DNA from: a virus
Lineage: Duplodnaviria > Heunggongvirae > Uroviricota > Caudoviricetes
IMG/VR virus record: IMGVR_UViG_3300036399_001023
Direction: 5' to 3' (one strand)
DNA length: 64,000 nt
Under the pieces are notes generated by a model that did no database searches, was not told the origin of the DNA, and saw nothing but the letters and a program-made list of their open reading frames with translations. This document shows, in pieces, positions 3,680 to 59,573 of the stretch. The position numbers and the translations under genes are program-made. The stretch's first letter is position 1. Every line of letters begins with the position of its first letter.

Positions 3680-4198
3680 TTAAGGGGAACCCTCTGAAAG
3701 TGGGGGCAACGGCAATGGTACCGCACCGGGAATAGCCTTAGGCACCCCGATCTTGCGCTCTTTCGGCGGTCCCACTTGCGCGTCTGCGGACAGGCCCCCG
3801 TAAGCCGGTGCTTCCAAGCCTGTTGGACTGAAAGTTGGTCCAGGTGAGGGAGTGTTGGAAAGCTCTGTGAACTCAGGGGGAAGGCTCGGGGGAGCTGAGC
3901 CAGGGGGCGAGAGACTAACCACAAGGTGGTTGAGACAGTCGGTATAAGGGGGCATTGCACCCGTTTCTACTATCTTCTGGGAGAGGCTCGTCCTCTGAGT
4001 GTGAACCCACTCGGACAAAATCTGCGAAATTTTGTCGGCCCAAAAGTCTGCGTTCTCTTCGTCGTTGCCCTCCTGGAGAAATGCACCTTGAATTTGGCTC
4101 CAAAGGGAATTTGACTTTCGTTGGGCCCGTTCGAGCTCAGCGGTTAGGAACGAAATTTGTTCCTTAAGCTTTTCAATTAGTTCTTGGGAGTTTGACAT
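3680..4198 (-). CDS. hypothetical protein, N-terminal coiled coil, Pro-rich C-terminus
   Basis: ORF track 172 aa. Confidence 0.4.
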   Translation of the reverse strand: MSNSQELIEKLKEQISFLTAELERAQRKSNSLWSQIQGAFLQEGNDEENADFWADKISQILSEWVHTQRTSLSQKIVETGAMPPYTDCLNHLVVSLSPPGSAPPSLPPEFTELSNTPSPGPTFSPTGLEAPAYGGLSADAQVGPPKERKIGVPKAIPGAVPLPLPPLSEGSP

Positions 4199-4300: not shown

Positions 4301-5053
4301 TTAACATCCCTGGACTTCAGCCAGAAGCTGCCCCAACAGCCGGTCAACCACCGGCCACTGGTCGGAAGTGCGGTACTTGCGCAGGCGGATCACGTGCGAT
4401 ATCTCAGCGGCCAGCGCCTGAGTCCATAAGGGTTCGCCTAGCCGTTGTCTCAAGTGGGCGCACAGAGGCGCAGGGTCACATCCTGGGTGTGATTTGAACA
4501 ACCGGTGATAATCGCTGTGGACAGACTGTAGCAATTTACCTAAGTCGAGAACGTAAGACTGAAACAAATTAGTCTTGAAATTAGGGTCGATCAGAACTAT
4601 TCCCCCGTTATTTTCTACAATGATGTTTTCAAGCGTTAGGTCACCATGCGAGAAGGAGGAAGGTAGTGGAACTATTTCGTCGAGGAAATCGAAAGTTCGA
4701 CGAACTATCTCGCTGTCTGTCAGAGAAACGTGCTCTAAGTGAAGACGCTCTTTGTAAGACCCCCAGTCCGTGTGTCTTGACGCTGGGAGCTTAGACCAAA
4801 TGAAGACCTGGTCTACCAAAGTGTCAATCAAACGTGTAGATTCAATTTGTGTTCCACAAACACCTTCAATAAACTCAATGTCGTAATCTGAGTCCGACAC
4901 ACAGATTGTTTGCGGGAGGCGAACACTTGGTGCCAAGGTATACCGAGAAGCAATGCGAAACCACTCGCACTGCTCACCGGCATCCTTACACTTTTTCCGT
5001 ATGAAATCCCCAGAGAAATCCAGGGTGGCCCCACTACTTCCCTTCACTAACAA
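4301..5053 (-). CDS. APH/choline-kinase-fold phosphotransferase (anomeric sugar kinase or choline kinase-like)
   Basis: HGDLTLENIIVENNGGIVLIDPN matches the Brenner/catalytic-loop pattern of APH/ChoK/AmgK kinases (HGDl.p.Nil...liD). Confidence 0.55.
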   Translation of the reverse strand: MLVKGSSGATLDFSGDFIRKKCKDAGEQCEWFRIASRYTLAPSVRLPQTICVSDSDYDIEFIEGVCGTQIESTRLIDTLVDQVFIWSKLPASRHTDWGSYKERLHLEHVSLTDSEIVRRTFDFLDEIVPLPSSFSHGDLTLENIIVENNGGIVLIDPNFKTNLFQSYVLDLGKLLQSVHSDYHRLFKSHPGCDPAPLCAHLRQRLGEPLWTQALAAEISHVIRLRKYRTSDQWPVVDRLLGQLLAEVQGC

Positions 5054-5747
5054 GCTCCCGAATGCGAGCGCAATCCGCCTCGTAAGTTAAGTCTCCCCAT
5101 ATCACACCCATGGAAGAAAGTGATACTGCTTGACGATTCTCCGCCATGTTTATCATATCCGTAATTTCAACCTCGCCACGGTCGCTCTTGCGAAGGTCAC
5201 CAATGGTGTCAAGGTATCCCGCAGGGAAACGGGCAAAACCACAGAAGTAACGGCCTTCGAGTTGTCCGTGTGGTTTTTCAATCACATAGTTGTCGATTAC
5301 TGTGGCGAGTTGAAGATTTCGTGGATTTAGTGACTTACGAAGATATGAAAACCACACTGAGTTCTCAAGGTCAGAGCCAAGTAAAACTCGTTCGGCATGG
5401 GGGATCGTTCCGTGGTAGTAATTATCCCCAAACAGCACAGTGAATGGGCCGTTGATCACGCCTGCCCACGTAGTGATCGCAGCTCCTGGTCCGTAAGTTT
5501 CCTCACTCTGGAAACGAACGATCGGGTCGCAAATCTTGGAAACTTCATCTAGAACAGGGTGGTAAATGCGAGTCCCGTCGGTCTTAATCGCCGAGCGCGA
5601 GAGCGTCAGATAGATGTTTTCCGCACCGTTTTCAAGAGCGAACTTGGCAGCCAGGTAAGGAAGTGACACCCCGTCAAACTTTTCCTCAAGTTTGTTTCGG
5701 CCAAACCGAGTACTACGACCGGCAGCAAGAATGAGTGCGTTCTTCAT
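5034..5747 (-). CDS. sugar-phosphate / phospho-alcohol nucleotidyltransferase (LicC, MurU, RmlA-like)
   Basis: N-terminal MKNALILAAGRSTRFG is the (L)ILAAG.G.R(L/F) pyrophosphorylase signature; 20-nt overlap with the downstream kinase. Confidence 0.6.
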   Translation of the reverse strand: MKNALILAAGRSTRFGRNKLEEKFDGVSLPYLAAKFALENGAENIYLTLSRSAIKTDGTRIYHPVLDEVSKICDPIVRFQSEETYGPGAAITTWAGVINGPFTVLFGDNYYHGTIPHAERVLLGSDLENSVWFSYLRKSLNPRNLQLATVIDNYVIEKPHGQLEGRYFCGFARFPAGYLDTIGDLRKSDRGEVEITDMINMAENRQAVSLSSMGVIWGDLTYEADCARIRELVSEGK

Positions 5748-6100
5748 TGTTCAATTTCCTTATATTTTGCGGAGAACTGAGCGGGAGTCATTGCTTTGTC
5801 GTCTACATAGTATGCCGCCCAAGGTTTTCCAACCAAGATGGTATCGTAGGGTACATCGAATTTAGTGCAGAACTTTTCGATTTCCTCGATAACTTCTTGT
5901 CTCACACTTTCGATGTCACCGTCTGAACGACCCATTCCCCTCGCTGTATTCAAGATGATCGTCCACCCTGCATCCTTCATTGCTCGCATACCCACAATTA
6001 CTTCCATCTTCGGTAGAGAGTTTTCGTAATCGCGGTTTTCTGTTGTGAGGATGGTGTCGTCAACATCGAAAACGATGGTTTTCTTTGGGTCGGGAATCAT
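5744..6100 (-). CDS. HAD-superfamily phosphatase
   Basis: IVFDVDDTILT (DxDxT motif I) plus downstream Thr/Lys/Asp motifs; ATGA overlap with nucleotidyltransferase. Confidence 0.5.
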   Translation of the reverse strand: MIPDPKKTIVFDVDDTILTTENRDYENSLPKMEVIVGMRAMKDAGWTIILNTARGMGRSDGDIESVRQEVIEEIEKFCTKFDVPYDTILVGKPWAAYYVDDKAMTPAQFSAKYKEIEQ

Positions 6101-6138
6101 TGGTAGCCGGAAGCTGTTCTAAACATAGGGGAGAGGAG

Positions 6139-6166
6139 CTTATAGTAAAGGGCGGAAAACCGCCCT
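6139..6166 (-). promoter_or_regulatory. short cassette variant (hairpin GGGCGGTTTTCCGCCC + TTTACT..TATGTT)
   Basis: cttatagtaaagggcggaaaaccgccc. Confidence 0.4.
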
Positions 6167-6171
6167 GGTGA

Positions 6172-7038
6172 TCAGTTAAGCACTGAGATTGTCTCGTTTG
6201 TGATGGTTTTGAGGCGGATCTCCGAATACCGGGAAAGCCACTCATCCTTTGTTCGACGGCTCTTTGGACTCGCGAGGTCCGGAAACTCAGCACAAAGTTT
6301 CTCTACGGTTTGGTTATTAATCTGAAGCTTTCGCTCCAGGTCTTCGCAGGTTCCGCCACCGCCTGTGTGCTGTTTAGCTTTCACACAGATGTTGTCGAAT
6401 CGCAGTGTCCCGTTTCCATTAACAGTGTGGTACAGAGACAAGAAGTAGTCGTCCTTCATACTGTACTCAGTGATTAGCTCAAAGGCTGGGTCGCCTGCGT
6501 AGAAACCAAATGCGTGGCCCATAATGAACTTGAGCCCCACAGTCACCTTTGGGTGAAGAAAACCCTTGTTGCGAACGGCATAGAAACCGAACAGGCCAAT
6601 ATCGCGCCGCTTGCACATTCGGAATCCTCGATCAATAAGCTCTGATAGCTCCACCACGGTTTTCAGGCGACACGGGTGGTCGAGTGGCTTCTGAGTCCCC
6701 TCAAGGTCTTTTAAGAGCTCAAGTTCCTCAACGGCGCTAACGTCGTCGTCGAACGAAAAAACAGGAGTCCCTTTGTCGTAAAAGTTAGAGATGAAGTGAC
6801 GTTGTTTTGTCAAACCCTTTTCACCAACAACGATATTGTATGTAGGATTTGAACTCTGGTAAATTTCCTTCTCTTCATCGTTTGCCACGAACAAAGTCAC
6901 GTGGGAACAATTAATGTCTGTTTTTTCAAGGTAATTCAGAGTGAGTTTCTTCACTCCGTCGGGCCTCCCGTAAGTTGGGATGGCAATCTGATAGTCCATA
7001 TTTAAGTGTAGTTGATGTGACTGTTGATGGAGCGTCAA
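6172..7038 (-). CDS. GT-A fold glycosyltransferase (GT2-like)
   Basis: YQIAIPTYGRPD near N-terminus and FDDDV (DxD) motif. Confidence 0.45.
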   Translation of the reverse strand: MTLHQQSHQLHLNMDYQIAIPTYGRPDGVKKLTLNYLEKTDINCSHVTLFVANDEEKEIYQSSNPTYNIVVGEKGLTKQRHFISNFYDKGTPVFSFDDDVSAVEELELLKDLEGTQKPLDHPCRLKTVVELSELIDRGFRMCKRRDIGLFGFYAVRNKGFLHPKVTVGLKFIMGHAFGFYAGDPAFELITEYSMKDDYFLSLYHTVNGNGTLRFDNICVKAKQHTGGGGTCEDLERKLQINNQTVEKLCAEFPDLASPKSRRTKDEWLSRYSEIRLKTITNETISVLN

Positions 7039-7087
7039 GAGTAGACGTCTGCTGCGTCCTCTTATCTCCGACTGTGTTATCCGGTGG

Positions 7088-7852
7088 TTAAACTAAGTTG
7101 CAAAAGATAATTTGTCTCCAGCGAGACACCAGCATGTCAGCGTACTGCTGTCGAGTTGGTGGGTTCGATTGCGGGTCGCTATTTTCGTAGAACCCAAGCG
7201 ACCACGCATCGTTAAGTTCAACTAGGCAGTACCGATTCAGGTCAGGCCTCCAGCCGATGTCAATCGTGTAAGCACCAGGCGCAATATTTGCCTCTAGCAC
7301 ACCCATAATCTCTTCAATCAGGCCGAAGTCGGGTTCGGGGTTTCTTACGGGCTTGTCGTCATACCGCGACCACCCCTGAATTTTACCACCCCCAATGAAG
7401 TCGTGAATGTAGAACCGAAATTCCGACTCAAAGGGCACAGCCTGAGAGATCCACACTGAAGTGTTATCAGAAATTAGTCCAGGTATCTTCAGTTCGAGCT
7501 CTCTCTTGATGTCCCCGGTAAACAACTTTATTGCGGTTGGCTTCACAAAGTCTTCCAAGGTTGCTTCACCGTACACTCCTTGTCGAACGGACCTCATAAG
7601 GTACTTTTTCAGTTCTGCATTACACCCGTAGGAAAAGTCCTCAGGTAGCACAATACCTACGTGTTCACTGTAAGCTTGAACAAATTCCACCGATCCCACA
7701 GGAATCAATGTAGCCATGAAACCTTTAGGGTCTAACTTCGACAGATCATAAAACGAGCAATATTGGACAGGGTAACAGGAGAAACTACACGCAACCTTTT
7801 CGATTTGTAGTGGTCCTCCGGACTGGAGTAGGAAAGTAGGATTTTTCATCAC
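7088..7852 (-). CDS. hypothetical protein, possibly ATP-grasp-like
   Basis: C-terminal YCLVELNDAWSLGFY resembles the ATP-grasp E.N Mg-binding motif; weak. Confidence 0.3.
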   Translation of the reverse strand: MMKNPTFLLQSGGPLQIEKVACSFSCYPVQYCSFYDLSKLDPKGFMATLIPVGSVEFVQAYSEHVGIVLPEDFSYGCNAELKKYLMRSVRQGVYGEATLEDFVKPTAIKLFTGDIKRELELKIPGLISDNTSVWISQAVPFESEFRFYIHDFIGGGKIQGWSRYDDKPVRNPEPDFGLIEEIMGVLEANIAPGAYTIDIGWRPDLNRYCLVELNDAWSLGFYENSDPQSNPPTRQQYADMLVSRWRQIIFCNLV

Positions 7853-7861
7853 GGTGGGTAA

Positions 7862-8047
7862 TTAGTTAGGAAACAACGACAGTATATTGGCATTAACCCA
7901 CTGGGCCTCTTCTCTCGACAACTTCAGCCACAGAAGGTCAAGCTCGTCGAGCAAGGCCTCCTCCGCGTCCTCGTTTCCCTCTCCCCTTAACTTCAGGGAC
8001 AAGCTAAGTTTTTCGCAGTAATCTTTAACTTTGTTAGTCATTGACAC
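7862..8047 (-). CDS. small hypothetical protein
   Basis: ORF track 61 aa. Confidence 0.3.
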
Positions 8048-8631
8048 GTAGAGTCAAGATTGGATCGAAGCATATTGCAGAAAATACGACCTTGTTCAAT
8101 AGCATCCTCTACAGCGATGTGAGTATGCTTGTTTTCGAGGGGAAACCACTCTTTCGGGTAGTTCCGTTTGGTGGACTCCCGGTATCCTCTTTTGAGCAAG
8201 GCCATAGCATAGGTCTTACCGTCAAGCGCCGAGAAGCTAAATGGGGACTGTCCAGTGAACCGAATAAGGTACCAATACACGAAAAGAAAGTCAAACCCTG
8301 CAGGAAAACCCACGAACACTGGAGAAACTTTTCGAACATTCGCTTGAGAGAACGAGCTTGCTGTAGCACTGACCCATTGAGAAAAGGCGAGCATGGCTCG
8401 GTCGGCAGGTAAAACCTTCTCTCTGGTTGCTCTGTAGGCCTCCGGGTGAGACTCCCACCACGCTTGGGTAGTGGGGTCCGGGTCGGCTCCGGGGAGGGTC
8501 TCTAGGTTCACAGAGAAGGTGCCCAGGAGTTTTCCGTCAGGGGAAAACGCAGCCGACCCAAGCGAAAGCATGCTGTTAGGTCCGGGGATCGGTCCGTCGG
8601 TCTCAACGTCTGTGCTGAAGTAGATTTCCAT
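8038..8631 (-). CDS. DEDD-family 3'-5' exonuclease-like protein
   Basis: [10 protein letters not shown] Exo-I-like motif near N-terminus. Confidence 0.45.
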
Positions 8632-8652
8632 CTGTGGCTCGTTTGTCTTTGG

Positions 8653-8700
8653 TTATTTTACCGTGTCTACGCTGTAGAAGCAAGGGCGGGAAACCGTCTC
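8653..8700 (-). promoter_or_regulatory. intergenic terminator-promoter cassette
   Basis: ttattttaccg-tgtctacgctgtagaag-caagggcgggaaaccgtctc. Confidence 0.45.
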
Positions 8701-9031
8701 ACCTCTTACCCGGAATGAACAAATTTGAGGCAGGTTCGTCTTCAATGCGAATTGCTTCCTTGGCGGTCAGGTCGTTGGTTCCTTCGATGCGAGTAAACGT
8801 TAGTCCGTACCCTTCACTCTCGGCTTGAGATGCAACGGAGTAGAGCCCCAGCGATCGTACAATAAGGTCACCCTCCGACAAGCCCTCTCGTTGAGCAAGT
8901 GCCCGGAAAGCCTCAGCGAAGCTTACCGGGAGTTCCACCGTAATGGTTGTTGTTGCTTCAATGGGTTCAATACTCTCCGAGGCAACTTGCCGCTCCGCAT
9001 CGCCACCGTTAAGCTGTTTGTTTGTGTCCAT
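8699..9031 (-). CDS. hypothetical protein
   Basis: ORF track 110 aa. Confidence 0.4.
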   Translation of the reverse strand: MDTNKQLNGGDAERQVASESIEPIEATTTITVELPVSFAEAFRALAQREGLSEGDLIVRSLGLYSVASQAESEGYGLTFTRIEGTNDLTAKEAIRIEDEPASNLFIPGKR

Positions 9032-9083
9032 TGTTAGTAATGCTGTGTTTTGTTCGTTAACTGCCGCTTCGGCGGCTTCAGGG

Positions 9084-10571
9084 TTAATTCTCGGTGCCCC
9101 AATAGTTAGTATTTGAGCAACGTTCTAAGCCGTGTTCGGCTTTATACGTCATCCATTCCGGTGATTTCCACATTCCGCTCCAAACACCATTCCAGGTCTT
9201 GTGACCCTTTCCATACTCCTTGTGATTGTCTGCTGCGTATCGCATGAAATCTCGGCGGCACTCCTCACACTCCATATCGTCAAGAGCGGTCATGCGCTCT
9301 CGTGAATAGAAAACGAACGAAACTCGTTCAGCGTCAGGCGTCTTCGGAATCATTGCAGTGTTACCGTGAATCAGTCCCTGATTGTCACCGGCAATAAAGT
9401 CCCCATCACGAAGGTCGAAAGCGCAACGAATTTCAGGGAACACAAGGTAATGGCCGTCATATTCCCCTTGAGTAATTGCAGTAAGAACGGCAATACCACC
9501 TTCGCAGTTATTACCGTCGTAGTGCATCGCACAACGGAAGTTCCAGTTTAACGTAAGGGCAGTGAACACCGTACCGAAGAGGTTATAGTGCGGGTCTTTC
9601 ACGTTACTGAACCGTTCGTGAAGGCGGTCCCACCGAGGGTTTTCCGGAGTGTTTAGGGTCTCTTTGAGTGCGGAACAAGCTGTCTGATAAATATCCGTGT
9701 GGCTTACGAACCCCTCATAGTCTTTTACAGTTGTTGCGGTCAAACGACCGTAAGGGTTACGTGCACCCCTATCAAAAGCACCAATCACGTTGGAATAGCA
9801 CTTGTTTGAACGGTATTGTTTTCCCACATACCTGTCGTCGGCACGTTTCGCCTCAGAAACCTTGTCCTTAGATACACTCCAAGTCTTGGATAGCCACGTC
9901 GGGAACCACTTCGCAAGTTCTCTACCCTTCGCTTCCTTCAGCTCTACCTTTCTTTCTTCGCTCAGCGTTTTCTTGCGAAGTTCCTTCTCGATAGATTCTA
10001 AAGCTTTCTCAATTTCTGGGAAGTCCTTTTTAACATCATTCACTCGGACAGTGAGCTTTGACATGTCGGGGGAGAGAGAAGCAATTTTCAGTGCCTCTTC
10101 CAAGTCAGTGACTTGACCGGCCATCGCCTTCTTGAAGAAGTTTAGAATACCGTTGGTTACCCTTATCTCGAGTTGGGTAGTTAGTTCTCTACCAGCAACT
10201 AGGCCTCGTTGGTCTGAGTACAAGTCTCTTGCTGCCCAGCGGAAGTATTTCCAAGTTTCCGGGCTACCTTTCGAACCATCGCGCAGCTTCGGAAAAAGTG
10301 CCTTACGAAAGGCAACAACTTTCACTCCGCCCACATAAACGTCGCAGTCTTCTTGAATAAGGTTGTCGTAAGAGGTTTCGTCGGCGAAATAGCCAATGTA
10401 GTCTTTCGGGTCACACTCGTATAGCTTGTCGAGGTCGATTCGGCGGGGCTCTTGGCGAGAGCTTAAATCACAGACAACGGCTTCACTTACAGAACAGTTA
10501 TCGTTGCATTTTTCATTTCCGGTTGAAGCGGCTTTAGAACTCTTCGTTAAGTTTTCTGTCACAAATGTCAT
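9084..10571 (-). CDS. TET/JBP-family 2OG/Fe(II) dioxygenase (nucleic-acid base hydroxylase)
   Basis: CAMHYDGNNCEGGIAVLTAITQGEYDG parallels TET [26 protein letters not shown] (HxD iron ligands); LIHGNTAM...ERVSFVFYSRE parallels the TET second His and R.SLVFYQH 2OG-binding Arg. Confidence 0.7.
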   Translation of the reverse strand: MTFVTENLTKSSKAASTGNEKCNDNCSVSEAVVCDLSSRQEPRRIDLDKLYECDPKDYIGYFADETSYDNLIQEDCDVYVGGVKVVAFRKALFPKLRDGSKGSPETWKYFRWAARDLYSDQRGLVAGRELTTQLEIRVTNGILNFFKKAMAGQVTDLEEALKIASLSPDMSKLTVRVNDVKKDFPEIEKALESIEKELRKKTLSEERKVELKEAKGRELAKWFPTWLSKTWSVSKDKVSEAKRADDRYVGKQYRSNKCYSNVIGAFDRGARNPYGRLTATTVKDYEGFVSHTDIYQTACSALKETLNTPENPRWDRLHERFSNVKDPHYNLFGTVFTALTLNWNFRCAMHYDGNNCEGGIAVLTAITQGEYDGHYLVFPEIRCAFDLRDGDFIAGDNQGLIHGNTAMIPKTPDAERVSFVFYSRERMTALDDMECEECRRDFMRYAADNHKEYGKGHKTWNGVWSGMWKSPEWMTYKAEHGLERCSNTNYWGTEN

Positions 10572-10689
10572 CTTTGGTTGATCGGGAGGAATTATTACCC
10601 AACGATGTTAACTGGCTCTTTTTCTTGCGACTAAACAAAAGAGTTGACCCTAGTAAAAGGTGTCACTAATTAACATCAATCACACACTC

Positions 10690-11031
10690 TTAAAGAGTAT
10701 TGGTTGGTGTCTCGGGCAAGGTTGAAATAACGGTTAACAGCAGCTTGTATGAACTTTTCTCCCTGTCCTCGAGGGGCACAAGTTCGTTTAGAGCAAGCAA
10801 GGAAAGCTGCTTGAGTGTTGGGCCAGATGGCGAACCAAACTGTCGTACTAGCTTAGCGGGAAGACTCGGCCCGTAACCTTTTGCACCTGCTTGTTCTTTC
10901 CTGTCAAACTCCTGTGCAATTTCCTTGACTACCCACTCTGCCACCTCTTGCACAAAAAGTTCGGTTTTAGATCGGTCTTCACAGAAGTAACGTTCTCCCC
11001 ATTCGTTCAATTGTTCTTGTTTAGGTCTCAT
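10690..11031 (-). CDS. hypothetical protein
   Basis: ORF track 113 aa. Confidence 0.4.
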   Translation of the reverse strand: MRPKQEQLNEWGERYFCEDRSKTELFVQEVAEWVVKEIAQEFDRKEQAGAKGYGPSLPAKLVRQFGSPSGPTLKQLSLLALNELVPLEDREKSSYKLLLTVISTLPETPTNTL

Positions 11032-11045
11032 AGTACATGTTTTGG

Positions 11046-11074
11046 TTTAAATAAAAAGAGACCCGAAGGTCTCA
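11046..11074 (-). terminator. rho-independent terminator (minus strand)
   Basis: minus strand GAGACC-TTCG-GGTCTC hairpin followed by TTTTTATTT, directly after the stop of 11072..11677. Confidence 0.6.
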
Positions 11075-11677
11075 CTGAAAGTACTCGAATTTTTGTGAGA
11101 ACGCGGCCCTCATCACAGACTGCATGTTTAGGGCAATGTCTAGATCTGTGCTGCAGTGGATTTTGTCGTCCAAAAGCTCAGGTATGACGAATGGTTGACT
11201 CTGTGTAATCTCGTCTTTGTAGAAGTAAATGCGGTGCTTAACACCAGTTCTTTCACAAAGTTCGTTGATTCTCTTTGCCTCCTTCACGAAGTTTTCACCG
11301 TGGCCCTTAATGCCGTCGTCTCGACACTCAAGATCAAGGTACTTGTGAAGCATCTCGTGCAAGAGAATGCTTCTTGTTTTTACAGGGTCACCTGCAATTA
11401 CGCGAGAGAGGCGAATTGTTCCGAACCCACGTCGTGCAGACGTTTTGTATGTGCCAAGAATTCTGCGACCCATGCGACCATCCCACTTTAGGGTGTCGTA
11501 TCGCGACCAAGTTTCTCCGTTTTCGTCTGTCCGAGTCTTACAGGGAAGAACTGGTAAGTCCCCGTTGAAGTAGCGGGCGTTAAATTCTGCGTAAATCTCT
11601 CCAAGATCGTACATCACCGTGGGATCCGGGCAGAACCGGTGAAAGAACGACTCAGAAAGGGTCGATTTTAGTTCCAT
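11072..11677 (-). CDS. SprT-like zinc metalloprotease-like protein
   Basis: ILLHEMLHKYL contains HExxH; start ATG only 6 nt after the cassette -10 box (possible leaderless mRNA). Confidence 0.4.
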   Translation of the reverse strand: MELKSTLSESFFHRFCPDPTVMYDLGEIYAEFNARYFNGDLPVLPCKTRTDENGETWSRYDTLKWDGRMGRRILGTYKTSARRGFGTIRLSRVIAGDPVKTRSILLHEMLHKYLDLECRDDGIKGHGENFVKEAKRINELCERTGVKHRIYFYKDEITQSQPFVIPELLDDKIHCSTDLDIALNMQSVMRAAFSQKFEYFQ

Positions 11678-12875: not shown

Positions 12876-13457
12876 TTAGTCTCCGATTGGAATGAATTTG
12901 GTTTGTTTGTTGGGTGACTTGTTAGTGCCAGACATCCACGGTTGTGCAACCATGTTGTTTAGGTACTTTTCGACCGTGGGAATGAACCCGAGGTCTTGAA
13001 TAATGTGATCTTCGGCGATGTCTCGGGGAGAGTAAGTTATTCCAGCAGAGTTTGTGCGTGTGCGACCGAACATCTGCTCAACGACAAAACACCCGAACGA
13101 CGAGTGAAGCAATGCCCGGTGACGAATGTCTGGAAAGGCAATCTTGCTACTGTCAATAAAGTCGTCGATATCGGCGTAGTCGTCTGGGGAGCCTCCGTAC
13201 TTTCTGGCATGTATCCTCCCGTGTAGAAAAGGTTTCATATCAAATGTGGAAGTTTTAACAAAGTTTTTCGTCAGTCTTTCAAGATCGTGGCTGACTCCAT
13301 GAGGTCTCCCGCTCAAGCCGAACTTTGTAAGTTTCTTTAGAAGTGTCGTACCAAAACTCAGGATCTTTTGCTCGGCACGGTGGCACATTCGTGAAGTTCT
13401 CCTCACGTGGTAAAAGCTTGGACACTTGTCGTATGCATTCCTGAGTAACCTCGTCAA
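12876..13457 (-). CDS. hypothetical protein (start uncertain; listed N-terminus overlaps tmk 3' end)
   Basis: ORF track 193 aa. Confidence 0.3.
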   Translation of the reverse strand: MTRLLRNAYDKCPSFYHVRRTSRMCHRAEQKILSFGTTLLKKLTKFGLSGRPHGVSHDLERLTKNFVKTSTFDMKPFLHGRIHARKYGGSPDDYADIDDFIDSSKIAFPDIRHRALLHSSFGCFVVEQMFGRTRTNSAGITYSPRDIAEDHIIQDLGFIPTVEKYLNNMVAQPWMSGTNKSPNKQTKFIPIGD

Positions 13458-21989: not shown

Positions 21990-22049
21990 TGTATAACGGT
22001 TTCTTTAGCGCCGTTGAACTTCTATGTGTTCAAAGGGGAAACCGTAAAC
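21990..22049 (-). promoter_or_regulatory. degenerate cassette abutting the 3' end of tRNA-Ser
   Basis: gtataacggtttctttagcgccgttgaac...caaaggggaaaccgtaaacg. Confidence 0.3.
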
Positions 22050-22133
22050 GGAAGAGGGGGGATTTGAACCCCCGGAGGTTTAACCCTCTACAGTGTTCGA
22101 AGCTGCTGCTTTCGGCCGCTCAGCCACTCTTCC
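22050..22133 (-). tRNA. tRNA-Ser (anticodon CGA), type II, no encoded CCA
   Basis: hand-folded: acceptor GGAAGAG/CTCTTCC, D-arm GCT-GAGCGGCCGAA-AGC, anticodon loop TTCGAAC, long variable arm, T-arm GGGGG-TTCAAAT-CCCCC. Confidence 0.6.
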
Positions 22134-22223
22134 TTGTCACCGTGGTGGGCCACTCCTGTGTCGTTCACCGGATATGGCCTGTGGGTGTGTTCTTTAACGA
22201 GTTTTCGAGGACTTGAAACTAAG

Positions 22224-22312
22224 TAGGCGTGTAGGGAGTCGAACCCTAACTAGCCGGTAATCTGCCGGAGAGGACTTTATAATGGTCCCTGTGCACCGTA
22301 CACCACACGCCC
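22224..22312 (-). tRNA. atypical type II tRNA, anticodon uncertain (UAU in a 7-nt loop with C.A closing mismatch, or a 9-nt loop CATTATAAA)
   Basis: acceptor GGGCGTG/CACGCCT (G.U first pair), T-arm TAGGG-TTCGACT-CCCTA, long variable hairpin CCGGCAGATTACCGG. Confidence 0.45.
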
Positions 22313-22354
22313 AGGATAGGGAACCACCGTGTGAGGTGGAACCCAAGGTAAAGC

Positions 22355-22519
22355 TCAGACAGAGGGAGTTTGAACTCCGACCGCCAAGTCAAATTCGTCT
22401 AGAGCACTTTGAACTTCAGTGCTGGTGCTTGCCTCGCTGAGTCTTAGGAGGAGCTTTGCGCCGTCGGGGTTTTCGACGCCAATTCGTGCGGCACGATCAA
22501 CTAGAGAAAGATTTGCCAT
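22355..22519 (-). CDS. small hypothetical protein (MANLSLVDRAAR...), paralog of 21640..21981 C-terminus
   Basis: listed 110-aa ORF trimmed because its 5' part overlaps tRNA-Arg. Confidence 0.35.
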   Translation of the reverse strand: MANLSLVDRAARIGVENPDGAKLLLRLSEASTSTEVQSALDEFDLAVGVQTPSV

Positions 22520-22566
22520 TTTGTATTGTTGCTGTTGTTGTTTAGTGTGGCTGCAAAGGCAACCTA

Positions 22567-22638
22567 CGCCCTGAGAGGGATTCGAACCCACGACCGGTGT
22601 CTTAGAAGGACAGTGCTCTTCCACTGAGCTACCAGGGC
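22567..22638 (-). tRNA. tRNA-Arg (anticodon UCU)
   Basis: hand-folded: acceptor GCCCTGG/TCAGGGC, D-arm GCTC-AGTGGAAGA-GAGC, anticodon loop CTTCTAA, T-loop TTCGAAT. Confidence 0.6.
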
Positions 22639-28558: not shown

Positions 28559-28744
28559 TTATTTCTCATGCGAAAGTAGTTGAAGAATCATCCAAAGGGC
28601 TCCCAACCCAAGTAGAAAGATTGGCACAAGGGTTGGTGAAAGCACTGTGAGCCAGGGCCAGGAAACCTGACCTGTTACCTTCAGAGTTATGAAAACGGTT
28701 TGCAGAACGATGCAGAGGGCACCCGGCAATTTGATCCAGATCAT
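28559..28744 (-). CDS. small membrane protein (tandem paralog 2, ..TGQVSWPWLTVLSP..)
   Basis: hydrophobic 61-aa ORF. Confidence 0.35.
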   Translation of the reverse strand: MIWIKLPGALCIVLQTVFITLKVTGQVSWPWLTVLSPTLVPIFLLGLGALWMILQLLSHEK

Positions 28745-30225
28745 GCTCCTTCAGCAAATACGGCACCGACAGCGTCGTACCTTTCAGTGTAAACAGCGTC
28801 ACGCATAACCCCTACAGGCGTAATTACCCCGCCAGTAAGCACAGCTTTCAGGATTGAAGGGCTGCATCCGGAGACCAGGCAAGTTCCCGTATCATGCATT
28901 TTCATAGGTACGTTGCCGCTAGAGCTAACATTCCAGAAGACAAGTTCCGGCAAGGAATACCCTGCTTGAGCATACTTGATTCGCACCGCCTCAAAGTTTG
29001 TTACCGAGTTGTTTCTGCAGCAGGAGTCAAACTGCATGTCTGAGACAATGATAAGCTTGCGAGGCATTTCCCCTTCAGGAATATGGTTCCTCGTTGCGGT
29101 AGCCAACACAAGATTGAAGACTGCCTGCAGGTCCGTATTCATTCCCCAGGATGCGTTGGAAAGGTTCCTGATGCGTTGAGCAATTGTAGAACCTGTGACC
29201 GTTTGCAGCTCGGGAGTTGCAGAGAATGTGAGGAACCTGTCTTTCCAGATTCCAGTGTTACGCTCAGCGATGTACATCGCCAGCGAGATTGAAACCGCCA
29301 TGGGCATGCCGCCGTTATTTCCCATTGATCCTGAGACGTCGGCAATTACCAGGCCGTTCAGCTGCTCTCCTTCCATGTAGTTGGGTAGAGCCTCCCACAT
29401 TAAGTTTAGAGTCTGATCGCTCCTCTCACCCCCGTAAAGGTACTTGTGCACGATCTCGTAAGGGTAGATCGTACCGGCATTGATTTTTGCCTCACCTTTC
29501 TCTACCGAGTCAAGGTAGGATTGGTAGCGGTCGCCGTCGCGCTTGGCGAAAGCTTTACGATACATGAAGCCTGCCCGAGAAGGCAACTTGCTATAGTCAA
29601 TGCTTTCCCACTCACGGGCACACATTGGCTGCTCAACAATCTTGACTTGTGACCTGAGGGCAGTCAGGGCTTTGCGGTACTGCCTCTCGGTCCAACCCAT
29701 TGCTTCGGCAATTTTTCGGCCAATCCTCTTAGAGTCCTGGCTGGAAGCGTTAATGGAAGGCAGCCACTTTGCCAGAAGTGACACTGACTTTCCAACTTCC
29801 GTATTTAGGTCGGCGTTCAGTTGTGCCTTAATTGCTTCGAGTGCGGTGCCCCAAACTAAGGTACCGTCGAGGGCTACCACATCATCCCAGCGACCGTACT
29901 GTGGAATCAGGCTAACTAGCCTGGCACCAATTGCAGCGTCATTGCGGACGAGTTCTTTAAAAACTTCTCGAAAGATCTTTCGCTCTCCCTGGCCCCCACG
30001 AATGTCGCGTGCCCAAAACAAGATTCGAGTTGCGGTCTCAGGGGCGTCTGCGTAGGCAAGGTTGAACAGTCGAGTTGCTTCGCTGATGTTGTCACGGCAA
30101 GCTGCAATCTTTCCAAAAAGGTCCAGGCACTTAGACTCGGTGGATTTGTATGCCTTTGCACCGTTAGCGGTGATGGTTTGGTTAAACTCGTTTTCGAGTG
30201 CGTTTAAAAAGGATGGCGTTGTCAT
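28741..30225 (-). CDS. rsr: Ro60/Rsr-like protein (TROVE-like N-terminal region + vWA domain)
   Basis: vWA MIDAS motif LVIADVSGSMGNNG and LIIVSDMQFD in C-terminal third; N-terminal FLNALENEF...NGAKAYKST typical of TROVE/DUF2828-type proteins; 494 aa. Confidence 0.5.
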   Translation of the reverse strand: MTTPSFLNALENEFNQTITANGAKAYKSTESKCLDLFGKIAACRDNISEATRLFNLAYADAPETATRILFWARDIRGGQGERKIFREVFKELVRNDAAIGARLVSLIPQYGRWDDVVALDGTLVWGTALEAIKAQLNADLNTEVGKSVSLLAKWLPSINASSQDSKRIGRKIAEAMGWTERQYRKALTALRSQVKIVEQPMCAREWESIDYSKLPSRAGFMYRKAFAKRDGDRYQSYLDSVEKGEAKINAGTIYPYEIVHKYLYGGERSDQTLNLMWEALPNYMEGEQLNGLVIADVSGSMGNNGGMPMAVSISLAMYIAERNTGIWKDRFLTFSATPELQTVTGSTIAQRIRNLSNASWGMNTDLQAVFNLVLATATRNHIPEGEMPRKLIIVSDMQFDSCCRNNSVTNFEAVRIKYAQAGYSLPELVFWNVSSSGNVPMKMHDTGTCLVSGCSPSILKAVLTGGVITPVGVMRDAVYTERYDAVGAVFAEGA

Positions 30226-37859: not shown

Positions 37860-38993
37860 ATGAGAAATTGCTACACATACAGAGTGGGTTGGTCCCGGTT
37901 CAATAAGTACTACTACGGAGTTAGATTCGCCAAAGGATGTCACCCTGCTGACCTTTGGGTTGCCTATTTCACCAGCTCCCGGCATGTAAAAGCATTTAGA
38001 AAAGTTCACGGGGAGCCAGATATCCTGGAAGTGAGAAAAACTTTTGGAGACGAACCTAAAAAGGCAGCCGAATGGGAACAAACTGTTTTACGAAGACTAA
38101 ACATAGAGTTCAACGAACTATACTTAAACAGAAGCCGAAAGAACGCTTTCGGGGCCAAGGGGGCGCCATGGAATGTGGGTAGAACCAAGGAGAATTGCCC
38201 CGTGACACATTTAACTGCGGAGAAGATTAGCAAGACTAGAAAAGGTTTTAAAGCCTCAGAAGAAACTAAGAAGAAACTGTCTATGGCTGCAAAGGGAAGA
38301 GCCGAAGAAAATTCCTGGAAGCAGCTATTAAAAAGTCCAGCAATTAGAAACAGATTTCACTCCTATAAACATTTCTTAGTTGAGATAGAAAACCTATACG
38401 AGTCTTGTTGGGGTATCGCGGAGGTCATTTCAAAAGCCCTGGGAGTAAACGTCAGAGGCGTTGCTAAAGCCCTAGAGCGCCTAAATCTGACTTCTTTGAA
38501 CGACCAGCAGAGAACTAAAGTGTATAATAAGTACGGGAACAGGTTCTCTAGTTACAGCGACTACTGCATAAGTATCTTGGTTTTACATCTCAAGGGCTAC
38601 ACTCCCAGTCAAATTGGTAGTCAGTTGGATGTGAATGAATGCGGAGTGGGGAACCTTCTTCTCAGGGTTGATTTAACCCCAAACAAGGCCAAAACGGGAC
38701 CGTCAAAGCCCGCTTTTAAGAAGGTACTGATTGCTGATGCTCTTGAAGCTAAAAGCACCACATTCACTCTTGAAGACAATCCCCTCCCGGAGAGTCTTAT
38801 TGTTAAGTTGAGAGAAACCGTCTGCCATACCGAGGATCTCTTCCACACCCATATCCTTTATAGAGAAGCTTCCCAACACAGGGACGTGGCCCAAACCAAA
38901 TTGATCGCAAAAGTTTTTCCTTTCCAGGGGGGTCATGTACCTCCCCATATCCGTAAGGTAGACATCAAAAACAAAGAACTTGAAGTCATTTAG
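37860..38993 (+). mobile_element. free-standing GIY-YIG homing endonuclease gene (only clear plus-strand gene), in AT-richer island 37170..39000
   Basis: N-terminus CYTYRVGWSRFNKYYYGVR (GIY...YIG variant) followed by repeated NUMOD-like R/K-rich modules; its 3' 290 nt overlap the 3' end of the minus-strand ligase gene. Confidence 0.6.
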
Positions 38994-39755
38994 CTTGTAG
39001 ATGTTTTGCTGGATTTTTGGGCCTACAACTTCTCCCTGTACAGCCACATTGTCAAACCCTGCAGTCTTCAGTTTTTCTTCTAGATTGACTTTTCTAGCGA
39101 CGGACCAATAAGTGTTATTATTATCCTCTTTTAGGTCTAAGTTACGGGAGCAAACTCCGAACTCTCCGTTGTTAAGGTACATCGTACAAGATGTACCCTC
39201 TAGTTTCTCCGTAACTTCGTATACAACATTCTTGTATTCCCCCAGTTTGTCGTATAGAGATTGAACTCTCGGCTGATCCGTTTTGGTAATGTAGCTCGGG
39301 AAGTTTCCACGAACTTGTCCGGCAAGGCATGCGGGGACCGGAGCTTCCCACTTTTGAATACCGAGGAGTTCGGTAACATCGTCACCTTCCCTTACAAAGC
39401 GTAAGAAGCCGTCATCACCTTTGACTTGGAAGAATCCTCCGTTCAATGTCTCCACGAACGGTAGCAACAACCCCTGAGAAAGTTGCTTTTTCAGCCGAAT
39501 TGTTCTTAATTTCTCCCCCCTTACCCCCTTATACTCCTTCGGTTCTTTCCCCTTAGACAGAGTAGGATCCAGTACATGGGGCACAAACGAGTCTGGCTCC
39601 AGGTAAACTGCCAAGTCCCCAACCTCATACTTACCTACAGAGTCAACAACCCACCACCCATTAACACGGTAGGCACAGATTCTGTCTGCTTCAGGGATAG
39701 AGCGAACCTCAGCGATTCGCTGGACGGAGGCGAGTTTGCGTTCGATGTTTGCCAT
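38703..39755 (-). CDS. ATP-dependent ligase-family nucleotidyltransferase (RNA-ligase-like)
   Basis: motif I-like EKLEGTS, motif III-like FVFDVY, motif IV EGIVFKS near C-terminus. Confidence 0.5.
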   Translation of the reverse strand: MANIERKLASVQRIAEVRSIPEADRICAYRVNGWWVVDSVGKYEVGDLAVYLEPDSFVPHVLDPTLSKGKEPKEYKGVRGEKLRTIRLKKQLSQGLLLPFVETLNGGFFQVKGDDGFLRFVREGDDVTELLGIQKWEAPVPACLAGQVRGNFPSYITKTDQPRVQSLYDKLGEYKNVVYEVTEKLEGTSCTMYLNNGEFGVCSRNLDLKEDNNNTYWSVARKVNLEEKLKTAGFDNVAVQGEVVGPKIQQNIYKLNDFKFFVFDVYLTDMGRYMTPLERKNFCDQFGLGHVPVLGSFSIKDMGVEEILGMADGFSQLNNKTLREGIVFKSECGAFSFKSISNQYLLKSGL

Positions 39756-50925: not shown

Positions 50926-52098
50926 TCAGGCAATCCCAAGCAAAACGTCGAGCTTTTTTGGGGTTAAACCTTCGAGCCACTCTGCAAAGGATCCGACTTT
51001 GCCGGATCGAATCGCAAAGCATGCTCCAGAAAGTTCTTTTGACTCGGCAAGTACGGCTTGAGCGAAATCCTTTTGGTTAAGATGGTTGAAACTCGCCATT
51101 AGCCACTCCACCGAAGTTCCCATTTGGTTAATGGTGTGAGAATAAACGTTGAAGCCGTCGCGGTACTCAGGGAAGTGAAGCAGAAACTCTTCCAAGTCGT
51201 CGTTCAGGAAAAGCTCGGAGAAATCCGGATCCCCGTTACCACGCGCACGGTGCAACTGACAGTATAGATCGGACTTTGCTTTCGCACGACCATCACCGTC
51301 AAAGAGAATGAAGCCTTCGTGTTCCGCGCCACGATTGTTGACAACGGCCATCAGACCCTCCATGCTCCCTAGTTCGTAGGACTTGGCAGTCTCGTATCCG
51401 TACCTCAAACCGAACTCCTCCAGCTCAAGCTCCTCGAAGTCTTGGGTACGATCGCGCACAGCCAGCATCGGCAGCTGGGGCTCGGCGTAGTCCACAACGA
51501 TGCGGTTGTCACGGTGGCAAAGCTCAAAGATGTAGCAAAGCTCCACGTCAAGCCACTCTCGAGAATACCCAACTTCGTTAAAAACGTGCCAAAACAGCTC
51601 AGCGAACGAACGACCGGTTGAGCCTACCTCCGACGCTGCTGCAACGCTTCCTGAAGTTGAGACTATCCAATCCCCACGATAACTAAAAAGTTTGCACAAA
51701 CTCCCATCGTATTTTTCAAATACTTGAGTGCGAGACCAGTCCAGTTCGTGGCAGTGGCCTTCGCCAACGTTGAAAAAGCGGTCGAAGGCGTACGCAACCA
51801 GCCGAAAGTACGGGGAGCCCGTGCCATCATCAACAAGTTCGACTACGGCACCACGGCAGGCACGAACGATTGGCAGCGACTTGTCCGCCATTACACTGCC
51901 GTACTTTAAGTTGTAGAGAGCAGGGTAACGCTCGTCGCGAGCAACACGAATGTCGTGCTCGGCAAGTGCTTCAAAAGCAGTCTCGACCCTGTAGTTTAAC
52001 CAGTCGATTAGAAAGTGGCGCAGGTTCAATTCCATTTTGTTAGTATGGTGTTTCAGCCGATAAGTAAAAAAAAAAGGGGGGGCAAACCGCCCTTTCAA
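50926..52098 (-). CDS. Rnl1-family RNA ligase (T4 gp63-like)
   Basis: VFEKYDGSL matches the Rnl1 motif I (KxDG; T4 Rnl1 Lys99 in ..EKEDGSL..); size 390 aa. Confidence 0.55.
   Translation of the reverse strand: MKGRFAPPFFFTYRLKHHTNKMELNLRHFLIDWLNYRVETAFEALAEHDIRVARDERYPALYNLKYGSVMADKSLPIVRACRGAVVELVDDGTGSPYFRLVAYAFDRFFNVGEGHCHELDWSRTQVFEKYDGSLCKLFSYRGDWIVSTSGSVAAASEVGSTGRSFAELFWHVFNEVGYSREWLDVELCYIFELCHRDNRIVVDYAEPQLPMLAVRDRTQDFEELELEEFGLRYGYETAKSYELGSMEGLMAVVNNRGAEHEGFILFDGDGRAKAKSDLYCQLHRARGNGDPDFSELFLNDDLEEFLLHFPEYRDGFNVYSHTINQMGTSVEWLMASFNHLNQKDFAQAVLAESKELSGACFAIRSGKVGSFAEWLEGLTPKKLDVLLGIA
52040..52093 (-). promoter_or_regulatory. cassette variant with strong terminator (minus GGGCGG-TTT-GCCCCCCC + T10)
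   Basis: ttagtatggtg...taagt-a10-g7-caaaccgccc. Confidence 0.5.
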
Positions 52099-58058: not shown

Positions 58059-59573
58059 CTAAGCTGCGGGGTTGAGAAGTCGAGTACGAATGTTAGGCAG
58101 TGAGTTCACATCCTCCCCGTAAACCACGCTGTTTAAGAACACGGTGCGAAGCTCGCCTCGCCGCTCTTGCTCACGAGTCTGCTGTTGATGAAGAACAAAG
58201 TTCTCCCCATCCTTTTCAACTCGCAGTAGACCCAACGCCGATTTTTTCGTGCCGCGATCTGTAATAGGGTCCTTCATAGTTTCAACGGCGACACCGTTAA
58301 TTTGCCCCCAGGTCGTTTTGTATGCGATACCGAACGTGTCCCGTGTATGGTATTGATAGGTGTAGGACCCGATACCAAACACGATGTTTTCGGACGCCCA
58401 CCCAAGCTGCCTCATGTGCTCTAGGATGGCCCTGGCTCGTGGAAGAGTGATCGAGTCGCCGTAAATTAAGCCAACTCGAGGGTTCAGCACCTTGAAACCC
58501 TTCTCGTTCACAGTCCCACCGAAGACCTCCCAAAGGAGCTCAAGCGAGCCTTTGTACTCTCGGCTACCTGGCTCAGCGTCAGCGTCACCGCAGATAATTT
58601 TCTCAGGGTCACCGCTGTCGGGACGGAAGACGACCTTGGCCAGCCCTAGCCCGTTTGGCTTACGGCTCAGAATAGCTTCTTTCAGTTTGGGTGCAGTAAC
58701 TGTGAGAGTGTCCCAGTAATTCCACGTGTCACTGACTACACTAATAACCCCCGAGGGGTAAACTTTCGAGATAATCCGGCGAATTGTCTCGACTTCGTTT
58801 TCCCTGCCTCCGAGGCAAGTTACACTGTGTTCTGTGGCGGGGACACTCCCACCAATAAACTCTGAACCGCAATCGTAGTAATCCTCCAAATAGTCAATGG
58901 AAAGGATTGTGTCCGTGCCCTTGAAGGAGAAAAGGTGGCCGATTTGGTGCGCAGCGGCATCGTGAATGCCTCCGACTCCGCGAGCGGAGAAGTCGTGCCC
59001 CTGAAAGTCAACAAACTGCGGATTACTCCCTGTGATTTCAGCGTAGTGGTCGAGAAGACGGCGAAACTCGTAGGCGATGGTTGCCACGTTGATGGCCTTC
59101 CACAGCTCAGACGACTTGGCGGTTTCGACATAGTTGGTTAGCCACGGGGCCAGCCACTTGAAGTCATTGTGAGTGTTTTGCGCCGTCAAAAACGGCACTC
59201 CAATGTTAACACGGCTACCCTCGGGCAGTGCCTTCACATGTAGCGGCATGTAGCCCAGGTCGTGAAGCTCAGCAATGTGGTCAGTGCCGACAACACCTTC
59301 TCCGAGCGAGGAGTCCATTCGCCGCTTGTATTTGTCCAACACCTTGGCCTTGGGTTGCTGAAAAAAGGTCTCATTCCAAAGATCCCTCAGCATCCACTTC
59401 ATTGTCCCTTGAATGTTCGCTACAACGATCTTGTGGTCGAAGTCAGCGGGCATGTTCGCCAGACGGTCGGACCTTGCCGTCATGTTGGCGTAGATTACTT
59501 CGGTGCCTTCAGGGTTTTGCGAAGGGTGTCCCGTCTTGTAAAAGTCGGTTGCGTGGGGCGCAAAAATTTTCAT
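58059..59573 (-). CDS. nadV: nicotinamide phosphoribosyltransferase family protein (NadV/NAMPT; alternatively Namat-type ADPR-transferase of NARP1)
   Basis: 504 aa; N-terminus MKIFAPHATDFYKTGH and overall length typical of NAMPT; ATGA overlap with upstream Prs-like gene. Confidence 0.75.
   Translation of the reverse strand: MKIFAPHATDFYKTGHPSQNPEGTEVIYANMTARSDRLANMPADFDHKIVVANIQGTMKWMLRDLWNETFFQQPKAKVLDKYKRRMDSSLGEGVVGTDHIAELHDLGYMPLHVKALPEGSRVNIGVPFLTAQNTHNDFKWLAPWLTNYVETAKSSELWKAINVATIAYEFRRLLDHYAEITGSNPQFVDFQGHDFSARGVGGIHDAAAHQIGHLFSFKGTDTILSIDYLEDYYDCGSEFIGGSVPATEHSVTCLGGRENEVETIRRIISKVYPSGVISVVSDTWNYWDTLTVTAPKLKEAILSRKPNGLGLAKVVFRPDSGDPEKIICGDADAEPGSREYKGSLELLWEVFGGTVNEKGFKVLNPRVGLIYGDSITLPRARAILEHMRQLGWASENIVFGIGSYTYQYHTRDTFGIAYKTTWGQINGVAVETMKDPITDRGTKKSALGLLRVEKDGENFVLHQQQTREQERRGELRTVFLNSVVYGEDVNSLPNIRTRLLNPAA

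Follow-up and report, generated by a model that had tools for sequence, protein, structure and literature searches.

In the 64,000-nucleotide stretch of phage DNA analysed here (hereafter the window; IMG/VR record IMGVR_UViG_3300036399_001023, class Caudoviricetes), the genes at 4301-10571 probably form a post-replicative thymidine hypermodification cluster that makes its own sugar donor, in a cyanophage that is a relative of Synechococcus phage S-CBWM1. The comparison with published pathways supports well that this cluster is a new example of a recently described type of phage anti-restriction system and not a new type. What is specific here is the combination of a probable thymine target with phage-encoded donor synthesis, together with a long dioxygenase (495 amino acids) with no ParB detected, a split gene architecture, and a cassette swap among sibling phages.

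In the proposed pathway, a TET/JBP dioxygenase, whose family is established by the matches given below and whose target is predicted, would oxidise thymine to 5-hydroxymethyluracil (5hmU) in replicated phage DNA, and a glycosyltransferase (GT) of the TAGT family would then move a sugar onto the hydroxymethyl group to give a glycosyl-5hmU similar to base J. For the donor, a host sugar-omega-phosphate would be phosphorylated at C1 by an APH-fold kinase, the omega-phosphate would be taken off by an AfhF-like HAD phosphatase, and the resulting sugar-1-phosphate would be converted to a nucleoside diphosphate sugar (NDP-sugar) by an RmlA-type nucleotidyltransferase (NTase). The enzyme families come from direct matches, and we infer the order of the donor steps because the characterised Afh and heptose pathways run in this way. 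The modification would likely shield the phage DNA against host nucleases. The elements of this module are as follows.

9084..10571, minus strand: 5-methylpyrimidine dioxygenase of the TET/JBP family (Pfam PF12851) in a long, 495-amino-acid form, predicted to convert thymine to 5hmU on DNA
6172..7038, minus strand: TET-associated GT-A glycosyltransferase (Pfam TAGT, PF20691), predicted to transfer a sugar to 5hmU in DNA
6150..6165, minus strand: GC-rich hairpin GGGCGG-TTTT-CCGCCC followed by TTT, read in the sequence 7 nucleotides past the GT stop codon and before the donor operon
5744..6100, minus strand: small HAD phosphatase, AfhF homolog (matches to AfhF, TIGR01689 and 1xpj), predicted to dephosphorylate a sugar bisphosphate at its non-anomeric position
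5034..5747, minus strand: sugar-1-phosphate nucleotidyltransferase of the RmlA/ST0452 type (family profile against PDB), predicted to synthesise the NDP-sugar
4301..5053, minus strand: APH-fold small-molecule kinase (Pfam APH, structure model), predicted to act as an anomeric (C1) sugar-phosphate kinase

The window is a co-directional minus-strand block of phage genes with about 50% GC. Each open reading frame (ORF) named in an earlier note on this DNA was found on that strand where the note had placed it, and domain matches support the hypermodification module that it had described, consisting of a TET/JBP dioxygenase, a DNA-type GT-A and a dedicated NDP-sugar route. The three donor genes do have overlapping ends, as read in the sequence: the HAD and NTase genes share ATGA (4 nucleotides), and the NTase and kinase genes overlap by 20 nucleotides with a TTG start or by 14 nucleotides with a GTG start. 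Measured against two sibling contigs, the ratio of nonsynonymous to synonymous substitution rates (dN/dS) is 0.04-0.28 across all seven genes, which indicates purifying selection and therefore functional genes.

The ligand pattern that the earlier note had recognised in the dioxygenase is borne out by a match to PF12851 (Tet_JBP; 50.7 bits against a curated cut-off of 34.9, E 1.6e-13) and by an alignment in which H350, D352, H402 and R424 are invariant among 48 homologs, some as distant as 30% identity; these residues represent the HxD...H iron triad and a conserved arginine that may bind 2-oxoglutarate. The fold is a TET-type double-stranded beta-helix that lies nearer to the TETs than to other 2-oxoglutarate oxygenases. 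The window contains a single Tet_JBP copy, as no further dioxygenase paralog turned up when it was searched for one, and no ParBc match indicating a ParB-like activator was found in the Pfam survey of window ORFs or among the flanking small ORFs, although a strongly diverged ParB may have escaped both. Among the relative loci compared with the window (numbered L002-L010 and L018-L024), two carry tandem long-form Tet_JBP paralogs (L018:8507-9952 and 10001-11476; L020:8424-9953 and 10001-11590), and L008 has an extra short one of 331 amino acids (L008:12691-13686).

The nearest annotated genome is that of S-CBWM1, the sole cultured phage with the complete module. Its gp8-gp12 are the five module genes in the same order and without gaps, and the proteins are 41-61% identical to those of the window. 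The dioxygenase gp8 (MG450654.1 3729-5165) is mislabelled as “putative SNF2 DNA repair protein”, and the genes after it are labelled as a GT, a “capsule biosynthesis phosphatase”, a “glucose-1-phosphate thymidylyltransferase” and a kinase. The same SNF2 mislabel of TET/JBP proteins recurs in Stenotrophomonas phage DLP6, Caulobacter phage Cr30 and Pelagibacter phage HTVC112P. Dioxygenases 82-99% identical to that of the window occur in eleven IMG/VR loci, one of them located on a contig of 277 kb (IMGVR_UViG_3300044625_001067) that represents essentially the same phage as the window. In L022, the series consists of a dioxygenase, a TAGT, a small HAD-size ORF, an NTase (60% identical) and a 248-amino-acid ORF.

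The GT and the donor trio constitute a glycosylation cassette in a swappable slot, in which sibling phages hold an amino-acid-type thymidine cassette. In L008-L010, where the dioxygenase has 82% identity to that of the window, the flank on one side is shared (SprT-like gene, o10690, dioxygenase, o8699, exonuclease and an R2K-clade ATP-grasp gene), as is a 172-amino-acid ORF on the other side, homologous to 3680-4198. Between the R2K gene and this ORF, these loci contain no GT, HAD, NTase or kinase; the slot is filled instead by genes encoding GATase_6, an amidoligase-like protein, LMWPc, ADDT (amino-acid:DNA transferase; 3.4e-18) and Ploopntkinase3 (2.3e-11). The window cassette itself has neither ADDT nor Ploopntkinase3. 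The amino-acid-type cassette also follows dioxygenases of 49-52% identity in L018-L020, and in L021 it follows a dioxygenase of 34% identity, there together with a TAGT. Because the two cassettes occupy the same slot behind the same dioxygenase, both most likely elaborate one 5hmU intermediate. In work attributed to Lee et al. (2018), ADDT and the P-loop kinase reportedly act on 5-hydroxymethyl-dU in DNA, in a route said to phosphorylate 5hmU and then to substitute an amino acid or amine.

These siblings bear directly on the base that is oxidised, which the earlier note had left between 5-methylcytosine (5mC) and thymine. Published work counts ADDT and the P-loop kinase among the thymidine hypermodification machinery (PMC13229309), and it is very unlikely that an enzyme 82% identical to a partner of this machinery acts on another substrate, so the window dioxygenase probably oxidises thymine to 5hmU. 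No C5-methyltransferase is visible in the window, as the earlier note had already remarked: a Pfam survey of 100 further ORFs across the 64 kb found no DNA_methylase, the complete S-CBWM1 genome has no DNA methyltransferase by annotation, and neither a hidden Markov model built from two Pfam-called phage C5-methyltransferases (from L023 and L024) nor a motif scan able to detect the two positive controls found one in the window, S-CBWM1 or the sibling loci. S-CBWM1 encodes ThyX, a dCMP deaminase and a dUTPase. Phage 5mYOX enzymes (TET/JBP dioxygenases) without a neighbouring C5-methyltransferase were shown to be T-dioxygenases, and a C5-methyltransferase is found in only ~6% of 5mYOX pathways (O'Toole et al., PNAS 2026, PMC13229309). 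Context thus probably resolves the question in favour of thymine.

It is unlikely, in our estimate, that the dioxygenase oxidises 5mC made by a host methyltransferase or by a phage one encoded outside the window, so that the product would be a glycosylated 5-hydroxymethylcytosine (5hmC) as in the Burke/Pyle clusters. Every phage 5mYOX product experimentally shown to be glycosylated so far is a cytosine derivative, the window covers no more than part of a genome of perhaps ~277 kb, and more distant relatives of the NTase adjoin C5-methyltransferases in phage DNA-modification clusters that also include HAD, GT and epimerase genes. However, the methyltransferase is an immediate neighbour in the published 5mC pathways, the searches above found none in the window or the complete S-CBWM1 genome although their positive controls worked, and the siblings pair an 82%-identical enzyme with enzymes specific for 5-hydroxymethyl-dU. 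An RNA or tRNA target was also weighed, since RNA-repair genes are present nearby, and was rejected: no tRNA lies closer than 11 kb, and the cassettes of the siblings are specific for DNA.

The GT-A at 6172..7038, as the earlier note had called it, matches TAGT at 2.9e-10 (40.9 bits, cut-off 27.5) and contains FDDDV, a DxD motif. It also matches phrog_842 (9e-12), the PHROG of the T-even beta-glucosyl-HMC alpha-glucosyltransferase, and shares 60% identity with S-CBWM1 gp9, with a dN/dS of 0.07-0.08. The true start is more likely the ATG at 6999 than the TTG at 7038. In S-CBWM1 and L022, the GT directly adjoins the dioxygenase. The hairpin behind the GT is not listed in the terminator scan because its T-tail is short; it is possibly an attenuator, or an element for RNA stability, in the gap that separates the GT from the donor genes.

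The position of that hairpin, between the GT and the trio, would also suit a role for these four genes outside the DNA pathway, in which they would add sugar to a protein, to a virion component or to a surface polymer of the host and only happen to lie beside the dioxygenase. Similar trios are found in T4-like cyanophages within regions of genes related to lipopolysaccharide, among them the kinase/HAD/NTase set of S-CAM1, which adjoins a heptose epimerase and tail-fibre genes, and the majority of phage GT-A contigs lie away from base-modification genes. We nevertheless consider such a role improbable, as the GT falls in a TET-associated family and matches the T-even DNA glucosyltransferase PHROG, three diverged phages have the five genes side by side, and the cassette takes, gene for gene, the place that a DNA hypermodification cassette holds within these flanks in the siblings.

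For the donor trio, profiles, motifs and a structure model agree with the HAD, sugar-1-phosphate nucleotidyltransferase and APH-fold kinase identities first read from the sequence. The HAD protein has 37% identity to AfhF of phage HY126 (E 5e-19), matches TIGR01689 (2.8e-25, under the curated cut-off of the model) and PDB 1xpj (5e-21), and contains the DxDxT motif. Its homologs are present in 397 phage genomes, mostly T4-like, and are commonly mislabelled as “phosphoheptose isomerase”; a literature search on the TIGR01689/EcbF/BcbF phosphatase returned unrelated acronyms alone. In the NTase, G10, R14 and K19 are invariant, and its family profile retrieves the dual sugar-1-phosphate nucleotidyltransferase ST0452 (2ggo; 2.8e-15, full length) and RmlA (4.6e-11) from PDB, but neither MurU nor LicC at E<=0.01; NCBIfam sugar-1-phosphate nucleotidyltransferase models match at ~1e-10. 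That more distant relatives of the NTase likewise occur in clusters for phage DNA modification speaks for the proposed donor route. The kinase has the weakest Pfam support of the trio (APH 2.8e-5; Choline_kinase E 0.0066), and at the sequence level its profile matches only choline kinases in PDB, weakly (E 0.014-0.09). Its family has invariant K20, H136, D138, N143 and D156, and a structure model with a pLDDT of 94.2 has APH(2''), fructosamine-3-kinase and maltokinase as its top Foldseek matches. When both proteins were searched by tblastn in 50,697 phage genomes, the NTase and kinase were found in S-CBWM1 only, apart from an unannotated contig of a faecal phage, where the kinase matched in part (39% of the query, E 2e-5).

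The logic proposed in the earlier note, from a sugar-omega-phosphate through a sugar-1-phosphate to an NDP-sugar, therefore stands, while the MupP/AmgK/MurU and LicA/LicC routes that it named as analogies have nearer relatives of the trio ahead of them: the HAD is homologous to AfhF, the NTase is RmlA/ST0452-like, and the kinase family matches the C-terminal domain of AfhE (hhalign probability 89%, E 2e-6, 112 columns; BLASTP of the kinase E 0.003 across the catalytic loop), although both kinase matches could reflect a shared APH-like fold. The idea that the two genes represent a split AfhE was rejected, as it holds at most for the kinase half and BLASTP of the NTase against AfhE gave nothing. 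It is very improbable that the donor is an alcohol or amine in activated form, for example CDP-choline, made by a LicA/LicC-type pair for a phospho-alcohol modification. The choline kinase matches of the kinase, in Pfam and as its sole sequence-level hits in PDB, are what speaks for such a donor; however, the NTase profile matches sugar-1-phosphate nucleotidyltransferases over its full length and not LicC, the HAD is a homolog of AfhF, which acts on a sugar bisphosphate, LicA/LicC needs no phosphatase, and the transferase belongs to a glycosyltransferase family.

As to the sugar, arabinofuranose, a hexose or a heptose would all fit. Homology to AfhF points to a pentose, the heptose pathway of contig 53 (see below) and the S-CAM1 trio with its heptose epimerase next door point to a heptose, and an ST0452/RmlA-like NTase would also suit a hexose. 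No isomerase that would single out one of these sugars is encoded nearby.

Several points weigh against a thymidine hypermodification cluster with its own donor. The modification in this phage lineage is a prediction from its genes. The thymine target is argued from context, and 5mC could come from an unrecognised or a host methyltransferase. The dioxygenase is ~200 amino acids longer than the characterised phage T-dioxygenases. In the donor route, the NTase aligns with the NTase domain of AfhE over the first 14 residues only (the GxGxR motif), and the survey of 100 window ORFs found no sugar-phosphate isomerase, either arabinose-5-phosphate isomerase or GmhA. Finally, all loci in which the cassettes are swapped come from one phage lineage, so the constant company of the dioxygenase by the R2K and exonuclease genes, described next, may be synteny and not function.

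Three further genes lie between the GT and the dioxygenase.

7088..7852, minus strand: R2K-clade ATP-grasp protein, predicted peptide/amide ligase (Pfam R2K_3 3.9e-20, R2K_2 6.4e-19)
8038..8631, minus strand: Rv2179c-like DEDD 3'-5' exonuclease (Pfam 1.5e-6), with uncertain membership in the pathway
8699..9031, minus strand: small conserved ORF between the dioxygenase and exonuclease genes, its position kept in L002-L010, with a faint ribbon-helix-helix match (RHH_1, E 0.05)

The R2K matches give a family to what the earlier note had called an ATP-grasp-like protein. The R2K gene is present in L008-L010, L018-L020 and L022 (in the last just upstream of the dioxygenase series), and the exonuclease gene adjoins that of the dioxygenase in L002-L010 and L018-L020; both are absent from S-CBWM1. 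The two genes accompany the dioxygenase whichever downstream cassette is present. R2K enzymes have been predicted to be protein-directed peptide ligases in phage-host conflict, and a link to TET/JBP enzymes is not described. Farther from the cluster, the Tmk, Nuc_deoxyri_tr2 (DNPH1-like) and HD proteins that the earlier note had taken to fit a modified-base economy are present by Pfam, and that connection is less apt, as a post-replicative pathway has no need of them and the HD protein, similar to SpoT/RelA hydrolases, looks like a (p)ppGpp-type hydrolase.

Taken as a lineage, S-CBWM1 and its relatives may make a base-J-like glycosyl-5hmU with a self-made sugar nucleotide, with the long-form T-dioxygenase as a fixed platform for swapped cassettes and the R2K protein and DEDD exonuclease perhaps as accessory factors, a composite proposal that we put forward tentatively, as plausible and somewhat short of probable. 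The glycosylated bases demonstrated from phage TET-type clusters are all cytosine derivatives, surveys predict thymine for most clusters, and our literature search found no chemically demonstrated glycosyl-5hmU from a phage. If the proposal is true, this would be the first glycosyl-5hmU demonstrated in a bacteriophage, and S-CBWM1, cultured and with the complete five-gene module, makes the lineage tractable. The cassette swap behind an 82%-identical dioxygenase would be a natural experiment on how DNA chemistry diversifies from one 5hmU intermediate, presumably driven by modification-dependent nucleases. Further, the compact kinase/HAD/NTase route could serve the enzymatic synthesis of unusual NDP-sugars.

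Other genes of the window and its relatives were recorded as side observations. A DUF6915 protein (window 12876-13457, domain residues 74-175; L018:4972-5331; L020:5422-5781) keeps 92-94% identity between phages that otherwise share proteins of 35-65% identity, an unusually strong conservation for so small a protein. Adjoining NAPRTase-family and PRPP-synthetase-like genes (58059-59573 and 59570-60583) suggest a phage module for NAD+ salvage or synthesis, and L021 has a NAMPT/NAPRTase gene and a NUDIX-cytidylyltransferase gene near its dioxygenase. Two RNA ligases (38703-39755 and 50926-52098; one Rnl2-like with a PHA02142 OB domain, the other T4 Rnl1-like), together with a PNKP-type HAD and a Zeta_toxin/AAA_33 kinase detected in the ORF survey, presumably form an RNA-repair set that counters tRNA-cleaving host defences. 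One ORF matches the T7 gp5.9 RecBCD-inhibitor family (PF25708, 7.8e-15), and a 494-amino-acid protein at 28741-30225 contains DUF7788 (8e-51) and DUF2828 (1e-35). Three tRNA genes (Ser-CGA, Ile-TAT and Arg-TCT) lie on the minus strand at 22049-22638, many fewer than the 30-plus in the array beside the S-CBWM1 module.

Among known systems, one of the closest is the phage 5mYOX “contig 53” of subclass III, reconstituted by Pyle et al. (Cell Rep 2024; bioRxiv 10.1101/2023.12.21.572611), in which a fused HAD/APH protein, a cytidylyltransferase and a GT-B are all needed to place one or two heptoses on 5hmC. As in the window, a TET/JBP dioxygenase is combined with a DNA GT and with HAD, APH-kinase and nucleotidyltransferase activities for the donor. 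HAD and APH are recurrent 5mYOX neighbours in the published survey, and TIGR01689, matched by the window HAD, appears in the annotation table of Pyle et al. for this HAD type. Contig 53 differs in having a C5-methyltransferase and modifying cytosine, whereas the window cluster has none and probably modifies thymine, and in its fused HAD and kinase, cytidylyltransferase-type NTase and GT-B, in place of separate genes, an RmlA/ST0452-type NTase and a GT-A of the TAGT family. Since a phage 5mYOX/GT pair with donor synthesis had thus already been reconstituted, and the Afh pathway already characterised (PMC13326640), the earlier note's view that such a combination was undescribed does not hold.

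In the Afh pathway of HY126 (NAR 2026, PMC13326640), the kinase domain of AfhE converts arabinofuranose-5-phosphate to the 1,5-bisphosphate, AfhF removes the 5-phosphate, and the NTase domain of AfhE then makes UDP-arabinofuranose for DNA arabinosylation. The Afh systems of RB69, DLP3 and HY126 share with the window the sequence of kinase, HAD phosphatase and nucleotidyltransferase feeding a DNA glycosyltransferase. They differ from it in being pre-replicative, with a ThyA-like 5-hydroxy-dCMP synthase instead of a TET enzyme and cytosine as target, and in having a MurU-like NTase fused to the kinase, in contrast to the separate RmlA/ST0452-like NTase here. The Afh hallmark families SIS and Thymidylat_synt were not found in the survey of window ORFs; most of the Afh loci that we fetched carry a gene for arabinose-5-phosphate isomerase, and that of Klebsiella phage HMGUkp2 has none nearby, as is the case in the window. 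With the Afh pathway and contig 53, the kinase-phosphatase-NTase logic is established twice for phage DNA glycosylation, and the window holds a third architectural version of it, in which the three genes are unfused, the NTase is of the RmlA type and the transferase is a GT-A.

On the side of the oxidised base, the cluster resembles the phage T-dioxygenases (PMC13229309), which are TET/JBP enzymes without a C5-methyltransferase, act post-replicatively on thymine and often lie beside GTs. These are ~290-300 amino acids long and stand-alone or ParB-dependent, in contrast to the 495-amino-acid form here with no ParB detected, and their link to GATase, P-loop kinase and amino-acid:DNA transferase (AADT) machinery is seen in the siblings L008-L010 and L018-L021 (34-82% identical) and not in the window. 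That 5-hydroxymethyl-dU kinase and amino-acid:DNA transferase route occupies the identical slot in the siblings, whereas the window cassette would glycosylate instead. In base J synthesis by trypanosome JBP and JGT, 5hmU is glucosylated by a GT-A structurally related to the phage GT-A DNA glycosyltransferases; the difference is that base J draws on the UDP-glucose of the cell, whereas the phage of the window encodes its own donor synthesis.

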